In this document: positions 4,510-30,519 of the stretch, one piece after another
Layout of the letters: each line of letters starts with the position of its first letter
Position numbering within the stretch: position 1 is the stretch's first letter
Assembly: GCA_050506795.1 (NCBI GenBank)
Contig: JBJHCF010000012.1
Location: 47,502-98,352 of the forward strand
Length of the DNA stretch: 50,851 bases
From: Opitutia bacterium
GTDB taxonomy: Bacteria; Verrucomicrobiota; Verrucomicrobiia; Opitutales; T3Sed10-336
Reading direction: 5' to 3'
The notes under the pieces: generated by a model
What the model saw: the letters and a program-made list of their open reading frames with translations, nothing else
Database searches by the model: none
What the model was told of the DNA's origin: nothing
Program-made: the position numbers and the translations under genes

Positions 4510-4522
4510 CCGACCGATCCGC

Positions 4523-6901: not shown

Positions 6902-6951
6902 ATAACGAATCTTAACCTTAGTAGCAGCCAATGTTAATTCATCACCGATTA

Positions 6952-7533
6952 ATGAAAATCCACACATTCACTCTCGGCGCCATTTTGGCGGCGTTTTCGT
7001 TCGTCTCGTCGGTCCACGCCGACGTGCCGGTGCGCATCGTTACCGCCGACATGGCCTATCTTTACGAAAACTACCACAGCACGCTGGAGGCCCAGGCCCG
7101 ATTCCAGAGCTCGATCGAGCGCGCGCAGCGCCAGACCCAGGCCATGATGGAGGAAGGACAGGCCATGGTGGAAGAGTATCAGGAAATCATTGAGCGGACC
7201 AACAACCCGGCCCTGTCCGAGGAAGCCCGCATGGAGGCCCAGGATCGGGCCCGCGAGATGGTCGAGGCCATTCAGCAGAAGGAGCGCGAGTTGCAGCAGT
7301 TCCAGAACAACACCCGTCGCTCCCTGGAGCAGCGTCAGCGCAACCATCGAGAACTGATGATGGAGGAAATTCGCGAGGTGGTGATGGCTGAGGCGCGCAA
7401 TCGCAACGCCACCCTGGTGTTCGACACCTCCGGCGCCAGCGCCATCGGCATTCCTTCGGTGATCTACGCCGATCCCTCCTATGATATCACGGATGTCGTG
7501 CTGGAGGAGATCAACCGGGACGCCGGAGACTGA
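6952..7533 (+). CDS. skp: OmpH/Skp periplasmic chaperone
   Basis: Signal peptide, coiled-coil core, C-terminal [13 protein letters not shown]; lies between bamA and lpxD. Start 6952 or 6931. Confidence 0.9.
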
Positions 7534-7633
7534 TTCCGGCGGCGGGGGCGGTAAAGGCCGATTTCCGCTTTTAAAGGATTGCTTCCTGACGCTAAAAGCC
7601 CTGTCCTCGCAAGGACCGGGCTTTTACGTTTTC

Positions 7634-8692
7634 ATGGAGATTTCCTTATCAGCGGAGCAGATTATCGAAACCACGCGACCCTCGGATCAACGGGGGGAAA
7701 CCGATCGCGAAATCACTGGAATCGCCCCCCTGGGCGAAGCCCATGAGGGGGAACTTTCCTTCCTGCAGGAAAAGAAGTTTCTCCCGGACCTCGACCGGTC
7801 GCGGGCGTCCATCGTTCTGGTCCCCAGGGATTGCGCCGCCGCCCCGCGGGAAAATCAGCTCTTCCTGTATTTCGACAACCCCTCCTCCGCGCTGAGCCGA
7901 TTGTGCGCCCACCTCGAGCGCCGTCTGCGTCCGCGACCGGTTCCCGGGGTGCATCCGACCGCGGTGATCGGTGACGGCTGCCGGTTGCCGGATTCGGTCA
8001 GCGTGGGCCCGCACTGTGTGATCGAGGACGGCGTTTCCCTGGGCGAAAACACCATCCTGGAGGCCCGGGTCTTTCTCGGGCCGGGGGTGGTTCTGGGGGC
8101 CGATTGCCATTTGCGACCCGGGGTGGTGGTGATGGATGGCTGCCGCCTGGGCGACCGGGTGACCCTGCATCCGGGAGTGGTGCTGGGGGGCGACGGCTTC
8201 GGCTATGTGTCCGATGCCACCGGTCACGCCAAAATTCCCCAGGTGGGAGGGGTGCTCATTGAGGACGATGTGGAGATCGGCGCCGGCAGCACGGTGGATC
8301 GGGCTCGATTCAGCATGACCGTGATCGGAGAAGGGACCAAAATCGACAACCTGGTGCAGGTGGGGCACAACGTGCGGATCGGTCGCCATTGTATTCTCTG
8401 CGCCCAGGTGGGGATCGCTGGCAGCACGGTGTTGGGGGATTTTGTCATTCTGGGCGGACAGGTCGGGGTGGCCGGTCACCTCACGATTGGTTCGGGCGCC
8501 CGGGTCGGCGCCCAGAGCGGAATCGGACGCGATGTCGAGCCGAAGAGTTCCCTTTTCGGCAGTCCCGCGGTTTCGCTGCTGCTGCGCCAGAAAATCGTGC
8601 TGCTGCAACAGCGATTGCCGGACCTGTTCCGGCGGGTGGATCGAATTGAGGCGGATCTGGAAAAAGCTTTTGAAAAAGCGAAGGGAAGTTAA
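7634..8692 (+). CDS. lpxD: UDP-3-O-(3-hydroxyacyl)glucosamine N-acyltransferase
   Basis: Hexapeptide repeats, [20 protein letters not shown]. Start placed at ATG 7634. Confidence 0.96.
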
Positions 8693-13825: not shown

Positions 13826-15778
13826 ATGAGCGGAATCTGCGGAATAGTCCACTGGAACGACGAACCGGCGACCGAAAACGAGGTTCGCCCGATGCTCGAC
13901 GCCGCGCCGCATCGCGGTCCGGACGGAGTATTCTCCCGGGCTGAACGCAATGCGGCCTTCGGGTACCTTTCGCTTGAGATCACTCCAGAATCAAAAGACG
14001 AGGTTCAACCTCTCGTCCACACCCCGACCGGCGTGATGGTGGTCGCGGATCTGCGCCTCGACAATCGCGCCGACCTGATCCGCCGCATCGGCGAGGAAAC
14101 CGTCGAACGCCACCGCAGGGAGCTTTCGGCCCGAGGCCGAACCGCCGGCGAAGGCCCGCCCACCGACGCCGAGCTCGTCCTGATCGCCTATCTTCGCTGG
14201 GAGGCCGAATGCTTCGCCCACCTCCTCGGGGACTTCGCCATCGCCATCTGGGACCCGCGCTCCCGACATCTCCTCCTTGCACGCGACCCCATGGCCATGC
14301 GCGCCCTCTACTACCGCGTCGAACCCAAACGCGCTCTTTTTGCCACCGAAGTCAAACAGATCCTCGCCGTACCCGGGGTGGAGCGAAAAATCAATGATGC
14401 GGCTGTGGCCTCACACTTAAGCATCTCCCATCACACTCTTGACGTTAGCTTTTTCGAGGGCATCGAGCAGGGTCCGGCGGGAAGTTTGACTTTGATCTCC
14501 ACCGCCAAAACGGACACGCGACGTTTTTGGCAATTCAATCCGGAGATGCGAGTCAGGTATCGCGATGAACGGGACTACGCGGAGCACTTTCGCGAGCTTT
14601 TCGCCAATTCCCTGGCATCGCGCCTACGTACCGACAAGCCGGTTGGCCTTTCAATGAGCGGAGGCATGGATTCCGGCAGTATCGCTGCTACGGCTGGTTG
14701 GATGCGCGAACAGGGACGCATTCCCGTTGATCTGGAATTTCGTTGTTACTGCTGGGCTTTTTCAGAACTGGCGCAGTGCGACGAACGGACAAACAGCAGC
14801 CGGATAACCCGCCGCTACCACCTGCCGGTGATAGATATTCCCGGGGATGATGAATGGCCGTTTGTCAGGTACCCCGAAAGCGGTCCGGATCCCGACGAGC
14901 CGTTTTTCGGAGTCTACCAAAGCTTACTCGATAAAACCGCTGCCGCCGCCAGCAAGGACGGCGTCCGCGTCCTGTTCTCCGGTGATCGCGGAGATCTCCT
15001 TATGGGTGGTGGAATAACGGACCTGCCCGCGTTGTTTCTGCGCGGAGAACTCGGAGTTGTTTATCGGGAATTGCGTTACCTGGCATACCCTAGGGAGATG
15101 CCAAGTGTGGCCTACCGGAAAATCGTCAAGCCTTTGATCAAGAATGTCGGCCAGGCATTACTTTCGGATCGCCAACGGTCCGCGCTGAAACGGCTGGTTC
15201 GTGGGCAGGAAAACGCGGAATCGAGATTCAAACGCCGACGACATTTGAATGAGGATTTCATCCGGCGGCACAATACGCTGAACAACATCTATCTCCCGCC
15301 CGAAGCATTAAAAAACCAAACCACTCTCAAACGCTACGAATTCATCTTCGCCCCTGTACACATGAAAGGAATGGTTTGGTCTGACCGAACCAACAATCGA
15401 TTCGGAGTAGCCTTTGCCGATCCGTTCGGAGACCGGCTGCTCGCCGAATACATCCTTTCGATCCCACAGCGGATCGTCAATAGAGTCAGCGATCAGAAAC
15501 GGCTTCTGCGAGCCGCAATGGGGGGAATTATGCCCGCTGACGCCATAAAAGGAGCCGTGAAAGTGTCACCTTCTCCTCTGGCGATGAAAGGATTCCGAAC
15601 GGAAGCAAAAGCCTTGGTTTTGGATCTTCTCACCGAAAGCGAGGTGGTTCGACGCGGGTACGTCAATCCGGCCGGGCTGAAGGATCTCGCCGAAACCTTT
15701 TTTTCGGGACATGACGACCTGACCGACTTATGGGCGGTCCTTTCGCTGGAAACGTGGTTACGGCTGTATTGGCGATGA
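13826..15778 (+). CDS. Asparagine synthetase-like protein, putative lasso cyclase (paralogue 1)
   Basis: MSGICG (Ser in place of the catalytic Cys), HRGPDG, LARDPM, PP-loop SMSGGMDS, SGDRGD; same cluster as the lasso-type precursor. Confidence 0.85.
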   Translation: MSGICGIVHWNDEPATENEVRPMLDAAPHRGPDGVFSRAERNAAFGYLSLEITPESKDEVQPLVHTPTGVMVVADLRLDNRADLIRRIGEETVERHRRELSARGRTAGEGPPTDAELVLIAYLRWEAECFAHLLGDFAIAIWDPRSRHLLLARDPMAMRALYYRVEPKRALFATEVKQILAVPGVERKINDAAVASHLSISHHTLDVSFFEGIEQGPAGSLTLISTAKTDTRRFWQFNPEMRVRYRDERDYAEHFRELFANSLASRLRTDKPVGLSMSGGMDSGSIAATAGWMREQGRIPVDLEFRCYCWAFSELAQCDERTNSSRITRRYHLPVIDIPGDDEWPFVRYPESGPDPDEPFFGVYQSLLDKTAAAASKDGVRVLFSGDRGDLLMGGGITDLPALFLRGELGVVYRELRYLAYPREMPSVAYRKIVKPLIKNVGQALLSDRQRSALKRLVRGQENAESRFKRRRHLNEDFIRRHNTLNNIYLPPEALKNQTTLKRYEFIFAPVHMKGMVWSDRTNNRFGVAFADPFGDRLLAEYILSIPQRIVNRVSDQKRLLRAAMGGIMPADAIKGAVKVSPSPLAMKGFRTEAKALVLDLLTESEVVRRGYVNPAGLKDLAETFFSGHDDLTDLWAVLSLETWLRLYWR

Positions 15779-17685
15779 GTGGCATTTGCGGAATAGTCAA
15801 GACATCGGCCGCGGACGAGCCTTTTCCCGTTTCGGACCTTGAGGCCATGGCTGCCGCAGCTCGGCATCGTGGTCCGGATGGCATCATGCTCGAAGTACTC
15901 AACACCAGTGGCATGGGATACTTGTCGTTTGAGGTCACACCTGAATCGGTAGGTGAGGTGCAGCCCGTGATTTACAAAGCCGCCGGGATTATGGCTGTCG
16001 CTTCTCTGCGCCTCGACAATCGGGCCGAATTGATCGGAGCACTGGGACGGGAGCTTAGGGAACTCGGGAAAGCCGAGGCTCCCCCCACCGACGCCGAATT
16101 GCTCGTCGCCGCGCGTCTGAAATGGCCGGATTCGTTTGTTGAACGGTTGATGGGAGACTTTGCCATTGCCATCTGCGACCCTCGTCAACGCACCCTCCAA
16201 CTCGCCCGCGACCCGATGGGCATACGTCCGCTTTATTTTCATGTGGCGGCTCACCGACTCCTGTTCGCATCCGAGATAAAGCAGATCCTTGCGGTTCCCG
16301 GGGTCAAACGGGAGATAAACGAAAGGTCTGTCGCCGCCCAGCTGTGCGGGTTTCATCCACCGGCCGAGTTCACTTTCTTCCAGGGTATCGACCAAGTCGG
16401 GCCGGGTGAAATATTGACCCTCCTCGGAGACACAGTGACGCGCCGCCGATTCTGGGAAGTTTCGCCGGAACCCGCTCGACCGTTTAGGAGCGCTGAGAGT
16501 CTCCGCGCCGAGTTCCGGACGATCTTTCTTGACGCCGTTAAATGCCGGGTTCGCTGCGCATCGCCCATAGCGATATCACTGAGCGGTGGTCTTGATTCCG
16601 GAAGCATTGCATCTGTTTTCGGTTGGTTGCGGGAAACTGGACGACTCCCGGCGGATTCCCGACTAAACGCCTACAGTTGGGCGTTCGAAGAGCTGGTTGC
16701 CTGCGACGAACGGAAAAACAGCAGCGAAATTGCCGATCGGTATGGAATTCCCATGACCGGCATACCCGGCGATGACGCTTGGCCCTTGGCCGATCTTCAT
16801 CGCAACCGTCCGGATCTGGATGACCCTTATATTTTCTATTATCACGACTTGATCGACCGCCTGTTGGCCGCTGCGAAGCGGGACAACAGCCGAATGCTTC
16901 TGACCGGCGAGCGTGGCGATGCGGTGACCAATCAATGGGTTTACGACTACCCGGGTCTTCTGAAATCGGGGCGTTTATGCGCCCTTTACTCCGAACTATC
17001 GGCTCATGGAAAGTCAATGGAGTTATCGCTGACGCGGATGATCAGGCGCAGTCTCCTAAACCCATTGCTGGGAAATTCAGGTATTCCGAGGAGATACGCC
17101 AGGATGCGAAGGCGTCGTTCCCAGCTGCCGGCCTACGTTCGATCCGATTTTGCCTCGCGCGCCCAGGTATATGATCTTCACGAACGCCGCTATCCCGCCT
17201 CTCCTATCACCAACGAGGCGCGCCGCCTTCGATACGAACTTATCTTTTCATCGACTTCATTTCGGAGGATCTCTCTCATCGAACGCCATCAAGCAGCTCA
17301 TGGACTGGGGTTTGCAGATCCATGGAGCGACCGGAGAATCGCTGAATTCGTCGTATCGATCCCGCAGCATGAGGTACACCGGTTCCTCGATTATAAGCGG
17401 CTTACCCGGCGAGGTCTAAAAGGCATTCTGCCGGAAAGACTTCAGTCGATCACTCGCCTCGAAGCCAACGCCGACCCGGCCTCCCTGTTCGACCGAGGAA
17501 TCTACGACCGCAGCCGTGATACTGTTCGCAGTCTGATTATCGATTCTATCGCCGCCGAACACGGCTTCGTTGATAAGAATATCCTTCGAGATGACTACGA
17601 AGCCGCCCTAAGCGGAAAGCATCCACCCTATGAACTCTGGTGGTTCCTTACGCTCGAGCTTTGGCTGAGAGAACACTGGAGATGA
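15775..17685 (+). CDS. Asparagine synthetase-like protein, putative lasso cyclase (paralogue 2)
   Basis: ATG 15775 overlaps the paralogue 1 stop (ATGA). MSGICG, HRGPDG, SLSGGLDS, TGERGD. Confidence 0.85.
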   Translation: MSGICGIVKTSAADEPFPVSDLEAMAAAARHRGPDGIMLEVLNTSGMGYLSFEVTPESVGEVQPVIYKAAGIMAVASLRLDNRAELIGALGRELRELGKAEAPPTDAELLVAARLKWPDSFVERLMGDFAIAICDPRQRTLQLARDPMGIRPLYFHVAAHRLLFASEIKQILAVPGVKREINERSVAAQLCGFHPPAEFTFFQGIDQVGPGEILTLLGDTVTRRRFWEVSPEPARPFRSAESLRAEFRTIFLDAVKCRVRCASPIAISLSGGLDSGSIASVFGWLRETGRLPADSRLNAYSWAFEELVACDERKNSSEIADRYGIPMTGIPGDDAWPLADLHRNRPDLDDPYIFYYHDLIDRLLAAAKRDNSRMLLTGERGDAVTNQWVYDYPGLLKSGRLCALYSELSAHGKSMELSLTRMIRRSLLNPLLGNSGIPRRYARMRRRRSQLPAYVRSDFASRAQVYDLHERRYPASPITNEARRLRYELIFSSTSFRRISLIERHQAAHGLGFADPWSDRRIAEFVVSIPQHEVHRFLDYKRLTRRGLKGILPERLQSITRLEANADPASLFDRGIYDRSRDTVRSLIIDSIAAEHGFVDKNILRDDYEAALSGKHPPYELWWFLTLELWLREHWR

Positions 17686-17880: not shown

Positions 17881-18027
17881 ATGAAATCTGAAAATCTTAA
17901 ATCCAAAACTTATACTGCTCCTCTCCTCAAGAAATGGGGAACGGTGTCTGACCTGACCCTGACCGGTGGAACCAACCCTGGTGATGATGGAAAAGGCGGC
18001 AGCGTAGGTCACAGCAAAGGCCAATAA
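17881..18027 (+). CDS. Lasso-type RiPP precursor peptide (48 aa; not in the ORF track)
   Basis: Hand translation: MKSENLKSKTYTAPLLKKWGTVSDLTL-TGGTNPGDDGKGGSVGHSKGQ*. Leader motif YxxPxLxxxGxxxxxT; Asp at core positions 8 and 9. Confidence 0.88.
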   Translation: MKSENLKSKTYTAPLLKKWGTVSDLTLTGGTNPGDDGKGGSVGHSKGQ

Positions 18028-18069: not shown

Positions 18070-19272
18070 GTGCAGGAGCGCATGACCAACTGCATTATTG
18101 CCCGAATAGAAAAGCGATATGGAGGGTTATGCGTTCTGGCCGGAACGCAATCATCTAACGAGGCGCTCGCGGTAATCGCGAGCGCCTTACTGCTTCAAAT
18201 GGCGAGCCGGATCAGCTCGGGCGTTAAACTGGTGATTCGGAACACTGAAACCGAGTCCGTCCTGGCCGCGTTCGGTGAATTCAATGAGACCGATATTTGC
18301 CGATTGAAGGCATTGTCGGCGCAACTCTCCCGTGTCCATCGAAGCGCGAAATACGTTGATTACCGGCAGGCGGAAAGGGACTGCGAAATCCTGGCCGGAA
18401 AACTGAAAGCGCGTTACAGCGAAAGCGAACTGGGCGGTTTCACTGTTTACCCTGTCCCCCGGGGAGGGTGTATTGTGCAAGGGATGCTGAGCTACGCGCT
18501 GGATGTTCGTATTCCGCGGGTCCGTGAAAGCGGCTCGGAATCTTCCACGATTTTGGTCGTTGATGATTGCGCGATCTCGGGCCTTCGTTTGGGAGAGGTT
18601 CTGGCCCGGTTTCCCGGACATAAGATCATCTTTGCCACCCTTTACTCCCATCCCGACCTGAGAGACGCGATATGCAGGCGGGAATCGCAAGTGATCGACT
18701 TCGTCAGCGCCAACGACCTGACGGATCTCGCCCCGGAGCTTTACGGCGACGGGTGTAAAGAATGGAAAACGAACTGGGCCGAACGGTACGGATCGACTGC
18801 TTATTGGATCGGTCAGCCGGAGTACCTCTGCTTTGCCTGGAACGAGCCCGAAAGTGCTTGCTGGAACCCATTTTCCCGAGAAATCGAACCAGGGTGGTTT
18901 CTTGTGCCGCCGGAGCGTTGTTTGAAGCACCGCTCCCGCTCCTGGTTGAATGCGGGCACGGCGCCTTCAGACCTCCAGATTATTCCGGAATTTCCGGGAC
19001 CAATCAGACCGTTGGAGAATGTGCTGTATGCGCAAATGGACGACAACTCGATTGCGATAACATCCGCTCCCAACGAGGACTGTTTTCTTTTGGAGGGTAC
19101 CGCCGCCGACATGTGGACGGCTTTGCTGACCAATGGCTCGAAGAAAGCCGCCTCGGCGGCCCTCGCCAACCTATACGATATTTCCCCCGAGCAACTTGAG
19201 GGCGACCTCGGCAGGTTTGTCGACCAACTCAAATCCCAGGCCTTGATCGCGGATGCATGTACCGCCGGCTGA
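18070..19272 (+). CDS. Phosphoribosyltransferase-like domain fused to a C-terminal PqqD/RRE domain
   Basis: VYPVPRGG and ILVVDDCAISG resemble type I PRTase motifs. C-terminal FLLEGTAADMWTAL...LANLYDISPEQLEGDLGRFVDQLKSQALI is a typical PqqD/RRE pattern. Confidence 0.75.
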   Translation: MQERMTNCIIARIEKRYGGLCVLAGTQSSNEALAVIASALLLQMASRISSGVKLVIRNTETESVLAAFGEFNETDICRLKALSAQLSRVHRSAKYVDYRQAERDCEILAGKLKARYSESELGGFTVYPVPRGGCIVQGMLSYALDVRIPRVRESGSESSTILVVDDCAISGLRLGEVLARFPGHKIIFATLYSHPDLRDAICRRESQVIDFVSANDLTDLAPELYGDGCKEWKTNWAERYGSTAYWIGQPEYLCFAWNEPESACWNPFSREIEPGWFLVPPERCLKHRSRSWLNAGTAPSDLQIIPEFPGPIRPLENVLYAQMDDNSIAITSAPNEDCFLLEGTAADMWTALLTNGSKKAASAALANLYDISPEQLEGDLGRFVDQLKSQALIADACTAG

Positions 19273-19420: not shown

Positions 19421-22400
19421 ATGTACGATTCACGTGTTCCGCGAAGTCTTTTCATCTACGGCCTGCTTGCCGTTTTTGTCCTCTCCGGCTTCGCCGGCCT
19501 GATCTACCAGTCCATCTGGTCCCATTACCTCGGCCTGTGGCTGGGCCATGCCGCGTATGCTCAGGCCCTGGTTCTGGCCACTTTCATGGGCGGAATGGGG
19601 TTGGGGGCGGCCCTGGTGGCGCGTTACACCAGCGGCTGGCGCAATCTGGTCCGGAAATACGCTATCGTGGAACTCGCGCTCGGCGTCGCCGGACTTTGCT
19701 TTCACCTGATCTTCGTCAATCTGCACCACCTGCTGCTGGAATCGATCGTTCCCGTCCTGCCGTCGGCCTCCCTGGTCAGTGGTGTAAAATGGGGGGTCGC
19801 CATAGGCCTGATCCTGCCTCAATCGATTCTGTTGGGTATGAGCTTCCCCTTGATGAGCGCGGGCATCATGCGGCGGATTCAAGGCATTGAAGGACGAGTC
19901 CTGGGAAACCTCTATTTTTCCAACAGCATCGGGGCGGCGGCGGGCGCCCTGGCCGCGACGTTTATTCTGGTGCCCGCCGTAGGACTTCCGGGAGCGATTC
20001 AAATCGCGGGCTGCCTCAACCTGCTGGTCGGCGCCGCCGCGTGGGTTTTGAGCCCGAATGAAGCCGGAAACCAGTCCCAGGCCCCACGACAGGTCTCCGA
20101 CTCGGAATCCGTCGCGCGGCCGTCAGCCAAACGATCCCTGCTTTACGTTCTGCTGGCGGGCACGGCGCTCTCCAGCGCCGCTTCCTTCATGTACGAAATC
20201 GGCTGGGTGCGCATGCTCAGCCTCGCCGTGGGAACGACGCTGCACGCTTTCGAACTGATGCTGGCCGCTTTCATTGGAGGCCTGGCTCTTGGCGGTCTCT
20301 GGATCAGAGGTCACGCCGACAAGTTCGGGCGTCCGTTGATCGCCCTCAGTTGGATACAATTATTGATGGGCCTTTGCGCGCTCGGCTCGTTGGCCCTTTA
20401 CAGCGGCGCGTTCAAATGGGTCGGCTACCTCATGGCGGCCCTCGCGGAGACCAACAGCGGTTACCATTTTTACAATGCGGGAACGGCGGTCGCCGCCATC
20501 GGCATCATGCTGCCGGCAGCCTTCTTCGCCGGAGCCACCCTGCCGCTTTTTACCACCATTCTCCTGCGCGCCGGATTCGGGGAGTCCGTGATCGGAAAGG
20601 TTTACGCCTGTAATACCTTCGGGGCGATTTTTGGGGTTTTCGCCGCCGTTCACTTCATGATCCCTCGAATGGGATTGCGCGATGCCATGATCGCCGCGGC
20701 CGGACTCGATATCGCCATCGGCCTGGTCCTGATGGGCTTGTACTCACAGGGGCGGCAACGGGCCCTGCTGGTTCCCGCGGTTGTGGGGGCGAGTCTTTTC
20801 TGCGTCGTGGCAACCGGAATGTGGGTGCAATTCGATCCGCATCGCCTCGCCTCCGGGGTTTTCCGCAGCGGACGGCCTACGCTTGGATCCTCGTATGAAA
20901 TGCTGTACTACCGTGACGGCAAGACCGCCAGTGTCGCGCTTTTTCAGTCCCAGAACGCGGTTCGCTCGATTGCGAACAACGGCAAAGTGGACGCTTCGCT
21001 TTCCTTCGACGAGGAAGCCGGACCGACATTCGATGAATCCACTATGGTCCTCGCCGGCGCCCTGCCGATGGGCCTGCACGCGGACCCCCGAAGGGTTGCG
21101 GTCATAGGCTTCGGCTCCGGTCTGACCACGCAGACCGTCCTGGCGGATCCTCGTGTGGAGAATGTGGATACGATCGAGATCGAGTCCATGATGATCGAAG
21201 CCGCGCGCGGGTTTGGTTATCGCGTGGAGCGAGCTTATGCGGATCCTCGGTCGAACATCGTCATAGATGACGCCAAGACCGTGCTATCCGGCAGCAGGGA
21301 TCGTTACGATATCATCATATCCGAACCCTCAAACCCCTGGATGGCCGGGGTGGGCAATCTCTTCGCCGACGAGTTTTACGACTTTATCGCCAAACGACTC
21401 AACCCGGGCGGCCTTTTCGTCCAATGGCTCCAGTTGTACGAAATCGACGAAGCCCTGGTCGGGTCCATTCTCTCGGCGTTTGTCCCGCATTTCGACGATC
21501 ATCGCGCCTGGCTGGCGAATTCATCGGACCTGCTGATTGTTGGGACCCGAGGCGATCCGCTCCCTGCCCTGGACATCGAACATTTGTTTCGCGACCAGCT
21601 GGGCGTGGAAATGCGGCGCGCGGGTTTGCGCGATCCTGCTCAGATCGTCTTGCGCGAGTTCGCCGACGGCGCATTGCTGCGCGCCATGGCCGCCGCATTA
21701 GGGCAACCGGCGAACTCATATTACCGCCCCGTTCTCACGCTGAACGCCCCCAGGACGCGTTTTCGCCGGTTGAGTGCCGACCGGATCAATGCGCGTTCCG
21801 GAGAGCATGTTATGGTTCTCGAGCTCCTGGGGACCGGAAAACCGCTGCCCGGTGGCGTGGCACCTCCGGAACGCCCGCACTTCCGCGGAGAATACAACAC
21901 CACCATTGCCCGAACACTTCGGGGGGTCCTTTTGGGAGATGGCGATGCCTATGCGTTGTCGAACCGCTTTGATTCGGCCTGGCGTACGGAGCTGCTGCGC
22001 CTTCAATCACAGAATTGCCGGGAATCGGAAGACGCTGGCCGGGTCCCGGTTTGGCTGGATTTGTACGGGCCGTTCGTTTTGGAAACCCTTCCCTTTATCG
22101 ATACCGAGGGCGCCTACTCCCTGTTTGTCGAGCCGGAATGGCATCGGTGTACGGACATGCCGGCACTGGTGCGGACGGCACTCGACTTTACCAGGGATCT
22201 CGCCTTGCGGGACCTGTCGGAGATCCCGGTCTCGGCAGCCCGTTTCCTGGATCGAGCCGCGGAAGATGGAATCGACTCCAACCCTCTTAATGAATTGGCT
22301 TACCTGGCGGCTCAGGCCGCCCTGATTTCCTCAGGCGATCTGACGAATGCGCGTTCATTCAGAAATGATTATCGGGATGCCGCGATATTGAAGGCACAGG

Positions 22401-22462
22401 GCCAATTCCTCCAGGATGTCCTGGGAGAGATTTTGACACCTTCCGGCGATGCTCCCCATTGA
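19421..22462 (+). CDS. Fused multi-pass membrane (MFS-like)/spermidine-synthase-like SAM-binding protein
   Basis: SGFAGLIYQ..W helices (about 13 TM), then VAVIGFGSGLT, TIEIE, DDAK, YDIIISEPSNPW. Confidence 0.85.
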   Translation: MYDSRVPRSLFIYGLLAVFVLSGFAGLIYQSIWSHYLGLWLGHAAYAQALVLATFMGGMGLGAALVARYTSGWRNLVRKYAIVELALGVAGLCFHLIFVNLHHLLLESIVPVLPSASLVSGVKWGVAIGLILPQSILLGMSFPLMSAGIMRRIQGIEGRVLGNLYFSNSIGAAAGALAATFILVPAVGLPGAIQIAGCLNLLVGAAAWVLSPNEAGNQSQAPRQVSDSESVARPSAKRSLLYVLLAGTALSSAASFMYEIGWVRMLSLAVGTTLHAFELMLAAFIGGLALGGLWIRGHADKFGRPLIALSWIQLLMGLCALGSLALYSGAFKWVGYLMAALAETNSGYHFYNAGTAVAAIGIMLPAAFFAGATLPLFTTILLRAGFGESVIGKVYACNTFGAIFGVFAAVHFMIPRMGLRDAMIAAAGLDIAIGLVLMGLYSQGRQRALLVPAVVGASLFCVVATGMWVQFDPHRLASGVFRSGRPTLGSSYEMLYYRDGKTASVALFQSQNAVRSIANNGKVDASLSFDEEAGPTFDESTMVLAGALPMGLHADPRRVAVIGFGSGLTTQTVLADPRVENVDTIEIESMMIEAARGFGYRVERAYADPRSNIVIDDAKTVLSGSRDRYDIIISEPSNPWMAGVGNLFADEFYDFIAKRLNPGGLFVQWLQLYEIDEALVGSILSAFVPHFDDHRAWLANSSDLLIVGTRGDPLPALDIEHLFRDQLGVEMRRAGLRDPAQIVLREFADGALLRAMAAALGQPANSYYRPVLTLNAPRTRFRRLSADRINARSGEHVMVLELLGTGKPLPGGVAPPERPHFRGEYNTTIARTLRGVLLGDGDAYALSNRFDSAWRTELLRLQSQNCRESEDAGRVPVWLDLYGPFVLETLPFIDTEGAYSLFVEPEWHRCTDMPALVRTALDFTRDLALRDLSEIPVSAARFLDRAAEDGIDSNPLNELAYLAAQAALISSGDLTNARSFRNDYRDAAILKAQGQFLQDVLGEILTPSGDAPH

Positions 22463-22530
22463 CGGACTTTCACCAACGCTGCCTGCCGATCCCTGGTGGA
22501 AAGCAAAGAAACTAAAACGGGCCATTGAAC

Positions 22531-23469
22531 ATGACCTATAGTCTTTTTGGATTTAACGTTCACACTGATTTCCGATTCACGATCGACCTCCCTCGCGCGA
22601 ACGGCAATCCCGACCTTACCTTTTCGTGCGTTTCCCAAAACACTCCCCGTACCCTGGATACAGGAAATCACGTGTTTTCCAGCAGGGCGACCAACCACTT
22701 CGGTGAGCCCGAGGCGATGCTTTTCAGCAATTCCGTTGCTGATGTCATGCGTTTTCCCCGGATCGCGGACTTCGTGATTCGACCTGGATCAATTGTGTGT
22801 GAGCTCCTTGACCCCGAATGTGCCTACCTGGTGCAGATCTGTCTGCTGGGGCACGTTTTCGGCTACTACCTGGAGCGTAGCGGCTATTCTTCCATTCACG
22901 GCGCTTCGGTGGCAGTCGGAGAGTCGGCGGTATTGCTGGTCGGGCACCGGAGAGCCGGCAAGAGCACGATGGCGGGATCGCTCCTCAACGGCGGCTTGCC
23001 GCTCCTGGCCGACGACATTTCGGCGCTTGAAGTACGGAATACCAGCATCCTTTGCCGCCCGGCGTATCCCCAGATCAAACTTACCCCGGGGCAGGCGTGT
23101 CTTTTCGGCCTTGATTCCGCCAACTACGCAAAGGTTCATCCCGCCTTCGAGAAACTCAACGTTCCGATGTCCGACCTCGGCGAGTTCCATCCGACGCCAC
23201 TTCCCGCCCGCTGTGTCTACCTGATCGAACGCGTGCCGGACGAATCCACACAGGTAGAGATTGTCCCTGTTCCGCCGGGTGAAGCACTAATCGAGTTATT
23301 AAGACATACCTTTATCACCGATATCATCGAAGCCACCGATCTCCAGGCACCCAGGATGAAACGCCTGGCCCAGATCGCAAAAATCCTCCCGGTGAAACGC
23401 CTGCGGTACCCGTCCGGGTACGAAAACCTCCCGTTGGTCCATGAGGCGATTCAGGCGGACACGCGGTGA
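22531..23469 (+). CDS. HPr-kinase-like P-loop protein (lasso/paeninodin-cluster type kinase)
   Basis: IHGASV, Walker A GHRRAGKST, LLADD. Confidence 0.8.
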   Translation: MTYSLFGFNVHTDFRFTIDLPRANGNPDLTFSCVSQNTPRTLDTGNHVFSSRATNHFGEPEAMLFSNSVADVMRFPRIADFVIRPGSIVCELLDPECAYLVQICLLGHVFGYYLERSGYSSIHGASVAVGESAVLLVGHRRAGKSTMAGSLLNGGLPLLADDISALEVRNTSILCRPAYPQIKLTPGQACLFGLDSANYAKVHPAFEKLNVPMSDLGEFHPTPLPARCVYLIERVPDESTQVEIVPVPPGEALIELLRHTFITDIIEATDLQAPRMKRLAQIAKILPVKRLRYPSGYENLPLVHEAIQADTR

Positions 23470-23722: not shown

Positions 23723-24610
23723 TCAGAATACCCGTTCACGGACCCAGATCACATCGCCCGGAAGGATCTTGAAGCGTTCGGTTCCGTCGCGCCGGGATCC
23801 CGTGATCATGGATTCCACGTCGACCGTGTAGGTTCGCTCCCGTCCGTTTTCCTCCTGACGGGTGACGGAAACCGCGTTGGAACGGGCGATCCCGGTGAAT
23901 CCGCCGGCACGTGCGACCACTTCAACAATGTCCATGTCATTGCGCTCGATGGGGAAGTCCTGGGTTCCGGGTCGTCCCACCGCTCCGAGGATGGCGACCT
24001 CGCGCGGTGCGTATTCGACTACTCGAACGGTTACGATCGGATTGCGCAGGATTCTATTTTCGACATAGAGATTTTCAATGAAGTCTTCGGCCTCCCGGAC
24101 GCTTAGTCCTGTAACCCGATGATTGCCCAGCAGCGGAATTCGAATCTGGCCCGCCCCATCGATTCGCTGAGTGATGTTGAGATCCGCTTCACCAAAGACC
24201 TGGATCTCCACCTGGTCGCGTACGGAAAGCTGGTAATTGCGGGCGTCAAAGGCCGTGCCTGGCTGGCTGGCTGCAGTGCGTTCGGTGGTGACAAACGACT
24301 GGGTTTCGCGGTCCCAGCGAATCTGGTTCAAGGAGTCCCATCGAATTTCGGGTTGCGCCGGCCTGGAGGATTGCTCCGGCGCCGGCACTTGTTCGCTGCC
24401 CGGGGCGGCCCTTTCGTCGACCACGAGTCGGCGGGTCTCCGGGTCCCACCGGATTTGATCGGTGGACTGCCAATCGATGGCCGATCTTGAATCGTCGGTT
24501 TCCGCGGCGTTCGCTCCGGAAGCGATCAGCCCGGCCAGCAGCACCGCGGCAACGGCCGGGAGGTACCTGGCGAAGTGGGGGAGTGTGGCGATATCGAATG
24601 CGGTCTTCAT
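23723..24610 (-). CDS. Polysaccharide export protein (Wza/Poly_export plus SLBB domains)
   Basis: Signal peptide, YQLSVRDQVEIQVFGEADL, RIDGAGQIRIPLLG, GAVGRPG, ARAGGFT, ILPGDVIWV. Confidence 0.88.
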   Translation of the reverse strand: MKTAFDIATLPHFARYLPAVAAVLLAGLIASGANAAETDDSRSAIDWQSTDQIRWDPETRRLVVDERAAPGSEQVPAPEQSSRPAQPEIRWDSLNQIRWDRETQSFVTTERTAASQPGTAFDARNYQLSVRDQVEIQVFGEADLNITQRIDGAGQIRIPLLGNHRVTGLSVREAEDFIENLYVENRILRNPIVTVRVVEYAPREVAILGAVGRPGTQDFPIERNDMDIVEVVARAGGFTGIARSNAVSVTRQEENGRERTYTVDVESMITGSRRDGTERFKILPGDVIWVRERVF

Positions 24611-24663
24611 AGTATTAACTTAAGGATCTTTCAGGGACATCAATCCCGGGTTCAAAGTTCGAA

Positions 24664-25905
24664 TTAAAAGGTGTACCGGGTCGAGAGCGCGACCGTATGG
24701 CGTTCGAATTTCACGTCTCGTCGTTCCGAGTCGATATGGGTGAAAGCGTAATCAAGGCCGCCTACCCAGCGGTCTGTAAAAGTATAACTTAAACCGGTTC
24801 CCGCAGTATAGGCGTGATCGCGATCTGTTTCAACTCCGGAAAACTCGGAAAGGCGGTAGCCGGAGGAAACGTAGCCGGACATTTTTGGCGTTAGGCGCTG
24901 GGTGACCCGGACGGAAACCGAGGTGCGCTCCAGCGAACGACCTTCCCCGGATAGATCCTGGTCCCGGCTCGCGTCCAGGCTTGCTGTGGTATTCGGCCGG
25001 GCCGCCCAGGTCAAGCCGGCTGACAGAACCCCGCGGACCCGTTCCCTTCCGGTTCCCCGGATGACTTGTGTCGTCTGGGCGCCGGCGGATACCGATCCGG
25101 TAACCCGGGGAGCCAGCCGACCATCGGCGCCCACGGTAACGGCGTGATAGAGCGATTCACGGGTTTCGACTCCGGCGACGCCCGAGGAAGTAGATCTCCT
25201 CAGTCGATAGCCGAGTGTAAACCCCAGGTTTTCGGAGTAGAAGTAGCGGGTCCCCAGGCTCCCCCCGATACTGTCGACTGTACGGAATCCCACCCGTTCG
25301 GTTCGGGTGTAGTCGAACGAGTTGGTCAGCCCGACACGCTCGTTCAAACGGTAAGTGTTGTTGATACTGGCCCGATAACGGTCGGTCTGCGTTCTGATAC
25401 TGAGCGTTTCGCTCAATCCCGTCGTCTGGCGATAACTCAGGGAAACACCGCCGCCGAACCTTGAGGCGGCGGCGACGGGGTAGCCCACATCGAGCTCCGC
25501 GTAGTAGTTTTCAAAATTCTCGCCGGTAAAATCCACAAAACGACCGATGATTACGCCGGTACGAACACTCAAGTCGCTCCGGCCGGCACGGCGGATATAC
25601 TGTAACTCGGGATTGAAAGCCAACAGGATGTCATCCTCGGCATCTTCGGCTCCAAAGACGTTCGAATCGTAGGTCACGGTGCCCCCCGTGTGGAGGAGCA
25701 ACTCGCCGCGTGCGAACTCGTAGAACGCACTGGCGTGCGGTGTGGTCGCGAGGGAAGAAGCCAGCGCCGCAAGGTAGACAAAGGCAAGACGAATTGCTCG
25801 TGATCCGCATCGCGGTGACGAGAGTTTCGCCGTCACCGCCGTGCCGGCCTCGAGATTCGATTCAAACATGGACTGGAGAATAGGGCATTTTCTTGTCACC
25901 GACAA
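24664..25905 (-). CDS. Outer-membrane beta-barrel protein associated with exopolysaccharide export
   Basis: Signal-like segment, YDSNVF motif, alternating beta-strands, C-terminal RYTF; adjacent to the wza-like gene. Start uncertain (ATG 25870 possible). Confidence 0.75.
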   Translation of the reverse strand: MSVTRKCPILQSMFESNLEAGTAVTAKLSSPRCGSRAIRLAFVYLAALASSLATTPHASAFYEFARGELLLHTGGTVTYDSNVFGAEDAEDDILLAFNPELQYIRRAGRSDLSVRTGVIIGRFVDFTGENFENYYAELDVGYPVAAASRFGGGVSLSYRQTTGLSETLSIRTQTDRYRASINNTYRLNERVGLTNSFDYTRTERVGFRTVDSIGGSLGTRYFYSENLGFTLGYRLRRSTSSGVAGVETRESLYHAVTVGADGRLAPRVTGSVSAGAQTTQVIRGTGRERVRGVLSAGLTWAARPNTTASLDASRDQDLSGEGRSLERTSVSVRVTQRLTPKMSGYVSSGYRLSEFSGVETDRDHAYTAGTGLSYTFTDRWVGGLDYAFTHIDSERRDVKFERHTVALSTRYTF

Positions 25906-27177: not shown

Positions 27178-29058
27178 ATGCTCAGTAACCTAAAAAAGAT
27201 CAACGAACTTTTGACGCGGAAGCAGCGATTGGCCGGCCTGTGCCTGCTTGGGGTGATGCTTCTGATCGGCTTGATGCAGGTGGCGTCGGTGACTTCGGTC
27301 CTGCCCTTCATGGCGGTCGTCGGGAATCCGGAGGTAATCGAGACGAATCGCTGGATTAACATGGTGTACGAGGGGTTGGGGTTCACCTCGAATTTGAGTT
27401 TTCTCATCTTCTTGGGGCTGGTGATGTTGACCTCGATTCTGTGCCTTAATGCGGTGTCGATTTTCAGTGTCTGGCTCAACGCCCGGTTCACTTGGGCGCT
27501 GAACGTCCATATTTCGAGGAGCCTCCTCGCCAAGTATTTGTCGCAGCCTTACCTTTTCTTCGTCAGCCGCAACAGTTCGGAATTCTCCCACGCTGTGCTT
27601 CAGGAGACGCAATATTTCACCAACGGCTACGTAACTCCCCTGCTGCAGGTGATCGCCAAGGGCGTCACCATCATCAGCCTGTTTACTCTCGTTTTTTTGG
27701 TGGACCCTTTGGTCGCCACGTTAGCCATTTTTGTTTTCGGCGGCCTGTATCTGGCGATTTATTCCTACTTTAGAAAAAAGCTTGGGCAAATCGGGCATCA
27801 GCGTGTTGAAGCGAACCGAAAGCGGTACAAGTCTGTGAGCGAAGCATTCGGCTCGGTGAAAGAGAATAAGATCCTCCAACGGGAAGGGCATTTTGTGCGA
27901 TCTTATGATACCCCATCCCGCTTGATGGGGAAGCTGGAAGTGACTCTGCAGTTGATTGGCAGGATTCCTCACCTTGTGCTGGAAACCCTGGCGTTTGGAG
28001 GAATGATCGCTTTGGTGTTGTATTTCCTGGTCAGTAGGGGAGGGGTCGGTGAGATTTTACCGATACTGAGTCTGTACGCCTTCGCGAGTTATCGCATCAT
28101 GCCCGCTCTCCAGACGATATTCAAAACTTTCACCCAGCTTCGTTCCTCTCAAGCTGTTTTGGATTTGATTTATCGCGATATGACCGCTCCTTTGGGCGCC
28201 GCACTCGCGATAGACCCTGAAGAGATCCCATATGACGAACTGGACAAGAAGACTGTGGTGGTGCCCGAATCTCAGCGTGATTTATTGAAACCGGAGTCGC
28301 GAATCCTGCCGTTTCAAAGCACCATAGAACTACGTGATTTGACCTTCAATTACCCCGAAGCGCCTCGTCCCGCGTTGAAAAACGTCAGCCTTTCGATACC
28401 ATTCAACCGCTCGGTTGCTTTTTGCGGTCCGACCGGATCCGGAAAAACCACCGCGGTCGATATCATTCTGGGACTGCTGGAGCCTAGTGCCGGGGCGTTA
28501 CTTGTAGACGGTGTTAGAATCACCCCCGAAAACCGGCGCCAATGGCAAAGGAATCTTGGGTATGTGCCACAGAGCATCTATCTTTCGGACAGTACGATTA
28601 CGGAGAATATCGCTTTTGGGATTCCGAGGAAAGAGATAGATCATGCCGCTGTTGAGCAAGCGGCACGAATCGCCAACATCGCGGACTTTATCGAAAGCGA
28701 ATTACCACTCGGTTATGAAACGCTTGTAGGTGAACGCGGTGTGCGCTTGAGCGGCGGTCAACGTCAAAGAATCGGCATTGCCCGCGCCCTATACCATGAT
28801 CCCTCGGTCCTGGTCCTCGACGAAGCCACCAGCGCTTTGGACGGCGCGACCGAGGAGGCGGTCATGCAAGCCGTCAAACAGGTTGCCGAAGCCAAGACCG
28901 TCATCCTGATCGCCCACCGCCTATCGACCGTCAAGGATTGCGACACAATCTTCCTCCTGGATCACGGTCGTCTGGTAATGACCGGAACCTACGAAGATCT
29001 CATGAAAAACAGCAAATCCTTCCAAAGAATGGCCCGCCAACCCACCCCCGTCGGATAA
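27178..29058 (+). CDS. ABC transporter permease/ATPase (PglK/HetA-like, glycan-associated)
   Basis: TM domain, GPTGSGKT, LSGGQRQRIGIARALY, LDEATSALD, IAHRLST. Confidence 0.92.
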   Translation: MLSNLKKINELLTRKQRLAGLCLLGVMLLIGLMQVASVTSVLPFMAVVGNPEVIETNRWINMVYEGLGFTSNLSFLIFLGLVMLTSILCLNAVSIFSVWLNARFTWALNVHISRSLLAKYLSQPYLFFVSRNSSEFSHAVLQETQYFTNGYVTPLLQVIAKGVTIISLFTLVFLVDPLVATLAIFVFGGLYLAIYSYFRKKLGQIGHQRVEANRKRYKSVSEAFGSVKENKILQREGHFVRSYDTPSRLMGKLEVTLQLIGRIPHLVLETLAFGGMIALVLYFLVSRGGVGEILPILSLYAFASYRIMPALQTIFKTFTQLRSSQAVLDLIYRDMTAPLGAALAIDPEEIPYDELDKKTVVVPESQRDLLKPESRILPFQSTIELRDLTFNYPEAPRPALKNVSLSIPFNRSVAFCGPTGSGKTTAVDIILGLLEPSAGALLVDGVRITPENRRQWQRNLGYVPQSIYLSDSTITENIAFGIPRKEIDHAAVEQAARIANIADFIESELPLGYETLVGERGVRLSGGQRQRIGIARALYHDPSVLVLDEATSALDGATEEAVMQAVKQVAEAKTVILIAHRLSTVKDCDTIFLLDHGRLVMTGTYEDLMKNSKSFQRMARQPTPVG

Positions 29059-29214: not shown

Positions 29215-30519
29215 ATGAAAATCCTCGTCACCGGCGGCGCCGGCTTCATCGGCAGTAACCTGGTTCGGCATCTCGTCGGTCGAGACGACTGCGAGGTGGT
29301 CAACCTGGACAAGCTCACCTACGCGGGCAACCTCGCTTCATTGTCCGATCTGGCCGATGCCCCCAACTACACGTTCGAGCCGGTGGACATCTGCGATCTG
29401 GAAGGTGTTCGAGAGGTCTTCGCCCGCCACCAACCCGATGCGGTAATGCATCTCGCCGCGGAGAGCCATGTCGACCGCTCCATCGACGGCCCCGGAGCCT
29501 TTGTGCACACCAATATTCTCGGCACCTACAACCTCCTCCAAGCCGCACTGGAGTATTGGAGGACGATGGCGGAGGGCGGAGAAAAAATGGCGGATAGCGG
29601 AGAGCGAATGGCGAATGGGGGAGTAGGAAAGGCGGATGGTGAACCGCGGATAGCGAAGGGGGAGGAGCGGAAGTCGGAGGACAAATCCACCATTAGTCCT
29701 TCGCCATCCGCCGTTCGCCATCCTCAATCAGGAATCAGTCCTCCGCCATCCGCCATCCGCCATTCGCCATCCTTCCGCTTTCTCCATGTTTCCACCGATG
29801 AGGTTTACGGATCCCTCGATTCCGACGCGCCGGGGTTTTCGGAAACGCATCCTTACCAGCCGCATTCTCCCTACAGCGCGAGCAAGGCGGCGTCCGATCA
29901 TCTGGCTCGGAGTTGGCACGATACCTATGGACTGCCGGTAATCGTTACCAACTGCTCGAATAATTACGGACCCTATCAATTTCCGGAAAAACTCATACCC
30001 GTCGTGATCCTGAAATGTCTGCAAGGCAACCCGATTCCCGTTTACGGAAAGGGGGAGAATATTCGGGACTGGCTGTATGTTGAAGATCATGTTCGCGCGC
30101 TTACCAAAGTCCTGGAGCGCGGGACTCCCGGCGAAACCTACAATATCGGCGGCAACAACGAACTTCGGAACATCGATCTGGTGAGGATGCTCTGCGGAAT
30201 ACTTGACGAACTTGCGGAAACGGAAGATTACGGGTCGAAGATTCGGGATCTCGGATTCAAAGAAGGGGAATCGGGCAGAAAAAATGCCGGGAAATACGAG
30301 GATCTCATCACTTTCGTCAAAGACCGTCCCGGACACGACCTGCGCTACGCCATCGACGCCTCCAAGATCGAACGCGAACTCGGCTGGGTTCCCAAACAAG
30401 ACCGCGAATCGGGCTTCGTAAAAACGGTCAAATGGTACCTCGACAACAAAACCTGGTGGCAGGAAATCCTCAACGGCACCTACCGACTCGAAAGGTTGGG
30501 GGTTGAGAATGGCGGATAG
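29215..30519 (+). CDS. rfbB: dTDP-glucose 4,6-dehydratase with an in-frame repeat-derived insertion
   Basis: [43 protein letters not shown] ~69-aa low-complexity segment sits at 29566-29772. Confidence 0.95.

Follow-up and report, generated by a model that had tools for sequence, protein, structure and literature searches.

A phosphoribosyltransferase-like domain fused to a RiPP recognition element: a predicted tailoring family of kinase-type lasso peptide gene clusters

A gene on the forward strand (18070..19272) of a 50,851-nucleotide stretch of an Opitutia bacterium genome (contig JBJHCF010000012.1; this whole stretch is called the window below) encodes a protein in which a diverged type I phosphoribosyltransferase (PRTase) fold is fused to a recognition element (RRE) of RiPPs (peptides that are synthesised ribosomally and then modified post-translationally). 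This PRTase-RRE protein belongs to a widespread, unnamed family, found in many phyla and in some archaeal metagenome-assembled genomes (MAGs), which is coupled to lasso peptide gene clusters of the kinase type and is present there in addition to the separate leader-handling genes; the family probably adds a new decoration to lasso peptides. Taken together, the fold, the motifs and the genomic context suggest that it might phosphoribosylate the core peptide in a reaction dependent on 5-phosphoribosyl-1-pyrophosphate (PRPP), probably together with an HPr-kinase-like enzyme encoded nearby, a reading that we favour tentatively and hold with a little less than even confidence. By fusing enzymes to RREs, RiPP pathways direct chemistry to a peptide, and if a PRTase fold served in such an RRE-guided role, PRPP would join the few cosubstrates of RiPP pathways, and a sugar-phosphate the known lasso decorations.

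The fused protein and its relatives

Read from the GTG at 18070, the open reading frame (ORF) spans 400 amino acids (aa), and from the ATG at 18082 it spans 396; as a database copy 100% identical to the protein is 396 aa long, the ATG is suggested to be the true start. The protein comprises an N-terminal alpha/beta domain (aa 1-90, 18070..18339), which is poorly conserved and missing from shorter members (L061, L078, L071, L058 and L034, which start at profile position about 74-94), a type I PRTase-fold domain with its hood (aa about 91-290, 18340..18939), and a PqqD-like winged helix of the lasso B1 type (aa about 310-396, 18997..19257), all on the forward strand. The initial annotation of this ORF had pointed to the motifs PVPRGG and VVDDCAISG, to a C-terminal PqqD-like domain and to a precursor gene directly upstream, and all of these are in place: in the translation, aa 127-133 read YPVPRGG and aa 163-171 read VVDDCAISG, Pfam recognises the C-terminal domain, and the 48-aa ORF at 17881-18027 matches lasso_leader_L3.

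A word-indexed search retrieved 90 homologues (E 1e-134 to 4e-43), which carry no public names other than “PqqD family protein” or “hypothetical protein”, and a full HMMER pass with a profile of the PRTase part alone over 1.84 billion representatives (taken at the 50% identity level) yielded 562 matches at E<=0.001 and 383 at E<=1e-30, with lengths of 273-487 aa among the 150 best, in keeping with the fused form. In a one-genome-per-species collection, 160 stretches encode a relative, and with 90 homologues, 160 loci and 383 representatives, the fusion is far beyond what chance would produce. The best 80 of these 160 stretches, which together with the window make up the 81 loci compared below, come from Opitutales/Opitutia MAGs (the nearest, at 46-52% identity), Gemmatimonadota, Acidobacteriota, heterocystous and other cyanobacteria, Halomonadaceae isolates, Chloroflexota, Spirochaetota, Rhodothermota and Methanoregulaceae MAGs. 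As cultured carriers exist (Halomonas/Litchfieldella/Billgrantia, Calothrix and Westiellopsis), the proposed function is directly testable, and as the records name the family only as a PqqD family or hypothetical protein, the product class that it would define is invisible to genome mining.

An AF2 model computed from an alignment of 45 homologues (mean pLDDT 92.4, pTM 0.88) splits into two known folds when compared with representative structures by VIA-align, which returned 44 chains at Z>=8, nearly all of them PRTases or RREs. In the middle part, uracil PRTase 1vst aligns with Z 11.6 over model residues 94-259, and some forty further chains (uracil, purine and orotate PRTases, PRPP synthetases among them) match within residues 91-287 with Z from 11.6 down to 8; Foldseek against the PDB puts xanthine-guanine PRTases at the top (E about 8e-6, TM(target) 0.57), with further purine as well as orotate PRTases coming after them. 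By all three analyses the middle domain has a type I PRTase fold and is not the cryptic protease that the initial annotation had named as the alternative; a cryptic leader protease replacing the B2 leader peptidase is ruled out by this fold, by the lack of an invariant His and by coexisting B2 genes.

The similarity of the middle domain to PRTases is weak by sequence and clear by structure. A phmmer search of PDB sequences with the whole protein gave 0 matches at E<=10, all matches coming from profiles and folds; the general PRTase family PF00156 matches 22 of 60 relatives at E<=0.01 (one cyanobacterial member passing the cut-off with 27.2 bits), and PRTase-CE (PF24390), for which the Pfam scan of the window protein gave no match, is recognised in 19 of the 60 at the same threshold and in one database relative above its cut-off (33.6 versus 27 bits). 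A protein atlas search with residues 1-300 gave scores of 0.82-0.86, leads at most, with PRTase-like and PRTase-CE clusters among them.

The initial annotation had taken the C-terminal domain for an RRE, and its identity as one of the lasso B1 type is borne out by Pfam PqqD (PF05402, residues 337-393, E 4.5e-9, 36.9 bits against a 23.4-bit cut-off), by the family profile, which matches the lasso B1 proteins TbiB1 (5v1u, E 1.1e-14) and TfuB1 (6jx3, E 1.1e-8), and by VIA-align over residues 310-396 (TfuB1 with Z 13.0 and a root-mean-square deviation (rmsd) of 1.8 over 85 residues; TbiB1 with Z 12.7), weak lasso-PqqD matches being returned by NCBIfam as well. PRTase-RRE thus shares with lasso B1 proteins the winged-helix RRE (Z about 13, rmsd 1.7-1.8) and the position beside a leader with a B1-binding motif, and differs from them in being fused to an enzyme-like domain and in coexisting with a separate B1.

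Substrate loops of the PRTase-like domain

Two loops of type I PRTases bind the pyrophosphate (PPi) and the ribose-5-phosphate of PRPP. Their counterparts in the window protein are PRGG (aa 130-133, 18457..18468, forward strand) for the PPi loop and VVDDCAISGLR (aa 163-173, 18556..18588, forward strand) for the ribose-5-phosphate loop, with a hood motif FAWNEPE (aa 255-261, 18832..18852, forward strand) further downstream. Counted over the PRTase part cut from 60 relatives sharing <70% identity, P130, R131, G132, G133, D165, D166, G171, R173, L191, G248, W257 and E259 are invariant (60/60), and C167 (58/60), C284 (59/60), F255 (59/60) and P260 (58/60) nearly so. The initial annotation had worried that a PRPP loop reading ISG, not xTG, might betray a diverged activity; this part of it did not stand, as position 170 is occupied by Ser 34 times and by Thr 26 times among the relatives, an ordinary exchange, and the flanking DD, G and R do not vary, whereas its PRTase fold, its RRE and its tailoring-type role did.

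The same stretches are found by a HMMER profile of the PRTase part run against PDB sequences (alignments with weak E-values of 0.04-1), in which PRGG falls on the ARGG of purine PRTase 1vdm and the PRGG of TT1426 (1wd5), the DD-C-A-L-S-G stretch on the VDDV..TG loops of 1vdm, 1wd5, 2yzk and 6igs, and the hood F-A-W-N-E, weakly, on the F-P-W-E-E of 1vdm. One position departs from the solved enzymes: two residues before the loop Gly, where solved purine PRTases have the Asp of “DTG”, the relatives have Leu (45), Ile (11), Phe (3) or Tyr (1). In 6-oxopurine PRTases this Asp acts as the general base, and its replacement suggests that the acceptor has changed and is something other than a nucleobase; as the PRPP loops are invariant at the same time, it looks as though PRPP binding has been kept while the acceptor chemistry shifted. 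Mean pairwise identity is highest in the hood (0.516) and the PRTase core (0.455), followed by the RRE (0.316) and the N-terminal domain (0.263), which is not how a decaying scaffold would be expected to look; by these figures the PRTase domain is under strong purifying selection.

Set against type I PRTases at large (xanthine-guanine, purine, uracil and orotate enzymes, PF00156, PRTase-CE), the family shares the fold, a PPi loop of the RGG type, a PRPP loop (a hydrophobic run, DD and [ST]G) and the hood F-x-W-x-E. It differs in several respects: the DD is followed by a Cys that hardly varies, Arg stands where the second loop Thr would be and Leu or Ile where the “DTG” Asp would be, an N-terminal domain is added, an RRE is fused, and the Pfam score of the window protein lies below the cut-off; the acceptor is presumably a peptide. 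An enzyme acting on a small molecule has also to be considered, i.e., one that makes or salvages an unusual nucleotide or a ribosylated cosubstrate for the kinase or for an NTP_transf_5 enzyme, the RRE merely localising the supply. The nearest folds are indeed nucleobase PRTases, the hood resembles that of purine PRTase 1vdm, NTP_transf_5 genes occur in 16 of the 34 full loci (those flanked on each side by at least 7 kb), and the available part of Popov et al. contains the speculation that the NTP-transferase needs a partner making a rare substrate (PMC13381572). The loss of the “DTG” Asp to Leu or Ile speaks against it, however, as does the constancy of the RRE fusion (273-487 aa among the 150 best matches), which argues for the peptide itself as the substrate, and we regard this explanation as improbable.

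Partners in the lasso pathway and the predicted reaction

The putative substrate is encoded immediately upstream (17881..18027, forward strand) as a 48-aa lasso precursor that scores 19.2 bits with lasso_leader_L3 (cut-off 19) and has relatives beside the same genes (29 by phmmer, 75 by hidden Markov model (HMM)). Its leader reads Y-x-x-P ... W-G-x-V-x-D-L-T, and the 75 small ORFs collected by iterated HMM searches share the leader Y-x-x-P-x-L-x-x-[WFYH]-G-x-[VI]-x-[DE]-[LI]-T, 38 of them ending no more than 600 nt upstream of a PRTase-RRE gene. With the core start set two residues past the conserved leader Thr (i.e., Thr at -2), nearly all of these precursors have Asp/Glu at core position 7-9, and the window core would likely be TGGTNPGDDGKGGSVGHSKGQ, with Asp8 or Asp9 as the ring acceptor. 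A leader Thr at -2, an Asp/Glu ring acceptor at core position 7-9 and an Asn-synthetase-like cyclase, which are among the features by which a kinase-type lasso cluster is recognised, are all present in the window. In the tails of 35 of the 37 adjacent cores that were parsed there is a G-S or G-T, aligned as K-G-G-S in the largest subgroup, which makes this G[ST] element a candidate modification site; one of the 37 ends in Ser. With the leader Thr at -2, the window core would begin with Thr (TGG...), and position 1 of the relatives is Thr, Val, Ala, Gly or Ser; Thr as the first residue of a lasso ring would be unusual.

For the neighbourhood comparison, ORFs were called in the 81 loci by a greedy longest-ORF rule, searched with the window proteins and with HMMs of recurrent neighbour clusters, and named with Pfam. 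Among the full loci, a cyclase is present in 31/34, an HPr-kinase-like gene in 30/34, an ABC exporter in 21/34, and the B2 leader peptidase (Transglut_core3) and a stand-alone B1 (a PqqD protein of about 100 aa, usually overlapping B2) in 20/34 each, these tallies, like that of NTP_transf_5, being one-directional, as all loci were collected by searching for PRTase-RRE. The gene order is, for example, B1-B2-D-C-C-A-[PRTase-RRE]-K with N nearby in L002, the nearest relative, and B1-B2-C-A-K-D-[PRTase-RRE]-N in L037.

Could the protein, then, simply be the B1 of its pathway, a leader-binding partner of B2 and the cyclases that carries an evolutionary passenger domain? Its RRE is most like lasso B1 proteins, and among the ORFs of the window neither a B2 leader peptidase (Transglut_core3) nor a second RRE gene is found by Pfam. 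The missing parts are nevertheless elsewhere in the source genome, which has its pathway scattered over four contigs: C44 carries a stand-alone B1 with 67% identity to the in-cluster B1 of L002; C4 carries the single Transglut_core3 gene (B2), which is flanked by a metal ATPase and a histidine kinase and shares 47% identity with its in-cluster counterpart in L002; and C36 carries an NTP_transf_5 gene. Likewise, five genomes without B1/B2 within 10 kb of the locus have B2 elsewhere (5/5), with a PqqD gene beside it in 4/5. Given the stand-alone B1 in 20 of the 34 full loci and the fact that the supposed passenger is the best-conserved part of the protein, a plain B1 is very doubtful, and PRTase-RRE as the sole B1 of its cluster is ruled out by the coexisting stand-alone B1 genes, that of the source genome included. 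As separate B1 and B2 genes coexist with it, both in full loci and elsewhere in the genomes checked, PRTase-RRE is an extra protein of the tailoring type that bears an RRE, and not a stand-in for either, in agreement with the tailoring role originally proposed for it.

The most constant partner besides the cyclase is the kinase. In the window, it is an HPr-kinase-like peptide kinase (22525..23469, forward strand) with the Walker A motif GHRRAGKST, matched by Hpr_kinase_C (E 2e-5, below the cut-off) and HprK_rel_A (E 3e-5), whose G145, K146, D163 and D164 are invariant in 28 relatives. An explanation that would leave all the chemistry to this kinase is that PRTase-RRE is a non-catalytic adaptor, in which the RRE brings the precursor to the kinase and the PRTase-like domain serves only for docking to the kinase or for the sensing of PRPP or of a nucleotide (e.g., a stringent-response signal), thereby gating phosphorylation. 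Several observations suit it: the kinase is present in 30 of the 34 full loci, and 45 kinase genes lie no more than 400 nt from the PRTase-RRE gene, often overlapping it; the kinases appear always to be paired with an RRE protein, since in all five genomes without a kinase at the PRTase-RRE locus a strong homologue (E 1e-54 to 1e-121) neighbours a stand-alone RRE elsewhere; and regulators or ligand-binding folds are found among the structural matches (PyrR, PurR and the ppGpp-bound xanthine-guanine PRTase-like 5vog). In a quick maximum-likelihood tree, moreover, the kinases form two deep clades, one of which (52 rows, support 100) holds the window kinase and 41 of the 45 adjacent ones, and the second kinase of the source genome, on C44, sits in the other on a long branch; this is clustering and not dependence, as every genome sampled has PRTase-RRE by construction. 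On the other hand, the invariance of both substrate loops and of W257 and E259 in 60/60 relatives, in a domain conserved above the RRE, exceeds what docking usually needs (a ligand sensor could explain it), and Firmicute lasso kinases reportedly need little besides the target Ser, according to the available part of a review (PMC8498205). An adaptor is, in our view, the main rival of phosphoribosylation, less likely than it and on balance unlikely.

The accessible portion of the same review describes a kinase and a nucleotidyltransferase that decorate a lasso Ser, the described kinases acting on the C-terminal Ser (PMC8498205). Clusters of this paeninodin/pseudomycoidin type (with a homologue of HPr kinase as K, a nucleotidyltransferase as N, split B1/B2, C and D), as presented there, share their gene set and the Y-x-x-P leader with the PRTase-RRE relatives. 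In comparison, the PRTase-RRE loci add one gene between the precursor and the kinase and have adjacent cores that rarely end in Ser (1/37); the window genome differs from such clusters in its scattered parts. The linear polyphosphorylated peptide (LPP) cassettes of Popov et al. 2026, so far as the available text describes them, likewise combine an RRE with an HprK-like kinase, which acts on an internal Ser and adds several phosphates, and with an NTP-transferase and polysaccharide loci, but have a signal-peptidase-like leader peptidase and are described without a cyclase or a PRTase domain; their NTP-transferase was inactive in a heterologous host, and a missing partner is suspected by the authors (PMC13381572).

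PRTase-RRE as a phosphoribosylating enzyme would fit into such a pathway as an accessory tailoring step. The initial annotation had already suggested such a phosphoribosylation (+212 Da), perhaps as a primer for glycosylation, and made no mention of the kinase coupling, of the paeninodin/pseudomycoidin-type context or of the B1, B2 and nucleotidyltransferase genes on other contigs. The C-terminal RRE would hold the precursor from the adjacent upstream gene by its Y-x-x-P...D-L-T leader, the diverged type I PRTase domain tethered to the RRE would bind PRPP through the intact PPi loop PRGG and the ribose-5-phosphate loop DD-C-A-[IL]-[ST]-G-x-R, and 5-phosphoribose would be moved onto a nucleophile of the core while the peptide is still linear, after which the separately encoded B1, B2 and cyclase(s) would cut and thread it. 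The acceptor would most likely lie at the conserved Gly-Ser/Thr tail element, probably at or beside the Ser/Thr on which the kinase acts, and be modified either directly or via a phosphate placed by the HPr-kinase-like enzyme; transfer onto a phosphate would parallel the hexose-on-phosphoserine of pseudomycoidin. A bolder and more doubtful version, which may nonetheless hold, is that this is the first PRPP-dependent, RRE-guided RiPP modification, in which ribose-5-phosphate is added to a lasso precursor, possibly on a kinase-placed phosphate, giving a phosphodiester-linked sugar-phosphate handle that NTP_transf_5 and neighbouring glycosyltransferases could extend.

A number of points weigh against phosphoribosylation. 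We know of no precedent for the phosphoribosylation of a peptide by a type I PRTase. The small number of matches to the PRTase profile (562 at E<=0.001 among 1.84 billion representatives) places the domain very far from canonical PRTases, PF00156 matches the window protein at residues 156-201 below its cut-off (E 0.014, 15.2 versus 26.3 bits), and the structural matches include the ligand sensors/regulators PyrR (1w30) and PurR (1o57). Within the cores of the 37 parsed adjacent precursors no acceptor residue is universally conserved, and G[ST] is weak evidence for a site, as so short a motif often arises by chance in Gly/Ser-rich peptides. In addition, no phosphatase that could strip a 5-phosphate recurs in the neighbourhoods of the 81 loci.

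If phosphoribosylation of the precursor is nevertheless what the family does, a new class of phospho-glycosylated lasso peptides would exist in Verrucomicrobiota, Gemmatimonadota, Acidobacteriota, cyanobacteria, Halomonadaceae and methanogen MAGs. The silence of NTP-transferases from kinase-type clusters in heterologous hosts, as reported in the available text of PMC13381572, may also find its explanation in PRTase-RRE. A search of the available literature found no paper linking lasso peptides or RREs with a PRTase and no RRE-PRTase fusion (such genes may have been depicted earlier in cluster figures), and the enzyme fold and the predicted chemistry of this putative RRE-guided lasso tailoring enzyme would be new to RiPPs.

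Neighbouring genes and further loci

Upstream of the precursor, two lasso cyclase paralogues are encoded in tandem on the forward strand, overlapping by 49 nt: the first, Asn-synthetase-like, at 13826..15778 (Asn_synthase E 1.5e-35; lass_lactam_cya E 8.8e-94, 315 bits against a 525-bit cut-off), and the second at 15730..17685 (Asn_synthase E 1.8e-29; lass_lactam_cya E 5.6e-95, below the cut-off). A PEP-CTERM/exosortase amidotransferase was rejected for both, as lass_lactam_cya gives 315-319 bits and eps_aminotran_1 146-149. This overlapping pair serves a single precursor, recurs in L001, L002, L004, L017, L028, L029 and L050 (Opitutales and Gemmatimonadota), and is accompanied in this subgroup by cores with a conserved Lys two residues past the ring Asp (D-x-K-G-G-S); the tandem cyclases could form a heteromeric cyclase or close a second isopeptide ring.

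Between PRTase-RRE and the kinase, the window encodes a 1013-aa protein (19421-22462) in which a multi-pass membrane part is fused to a spermidine-synthase-like part (NF037959 79.6 bits; Spermine_synth E 5.6e-18), an arrangement that, of the 81 loci, the window and L003 alone have; the gene may encode one more tailoring enzyme or may have been inserted without relation to the pathway. Downstream, the ABC exporter (D gene; 27178..29058, forward strand) was identified by ABC families and belongs to a neighbour cluster common to 29 loci. The lasso genes are surrounded by a polysaccharide locus (23723-25905, 29215-30519) with a Poly_export/SLBB exporter and a PEP-CTERM-associated outer-membrane barrel on the minus strand; its 434-aa dTDP-glucose 4,6-dehydratase is matched by its family in two stretches (2-113 and about 185-431), and this split suggests an insert of about 70 aa.

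Further afield, clusters that look complete (B1, B2, cyclase, precursor, PRTase-RRE, kinase, ABC and NTP_transf_5) are found in L024, L035 and L063 on contigs binned as Methanoregulaceae/Methanospirillaceae, the first of them adjoining an archaeal AglB oligosaccharyltransferase gene; either a lasso pathway has been transferred into methanogens, or the contigs were binned in error. The Halomonadaceae loci have a second precursor type beside B1, B2 and N, which ends in Ser and is without G[ST]. In two Litchfieldella loci (L074 and L075, 1-12300), a single B1-B2 pair, a single N and two cyclases accompany two precursor types whose leaders differ: the first is present in three copies, which end in Ser, and the second in one copy beside PRTase-RRE and the kinase. 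This makes the loci a natural system for studying leader discrimination between the two RREs.

The source genome itself has PqqD-domain matches at two more loci. On C44, a cassette (L088, G000:C44:17000-29000, about 3862-7795) comprises an ABC exporter, the stand-alone B1, a 79-codon ORF and the second HPr-kinase-like gene, with no cyclase; the 79-codon ORF has a Y-x-x-P leader and a core ending in Ser, with no Asp/Glu at positions 7-9, and the cassette resembles the LPP cassettes as given in the available part of PMC13381572. The third PqqD match of the genome lies in a 783-aa ORF on C8 (L090, 4830-7181, minus strand; PF05402 E 1.7e-8).

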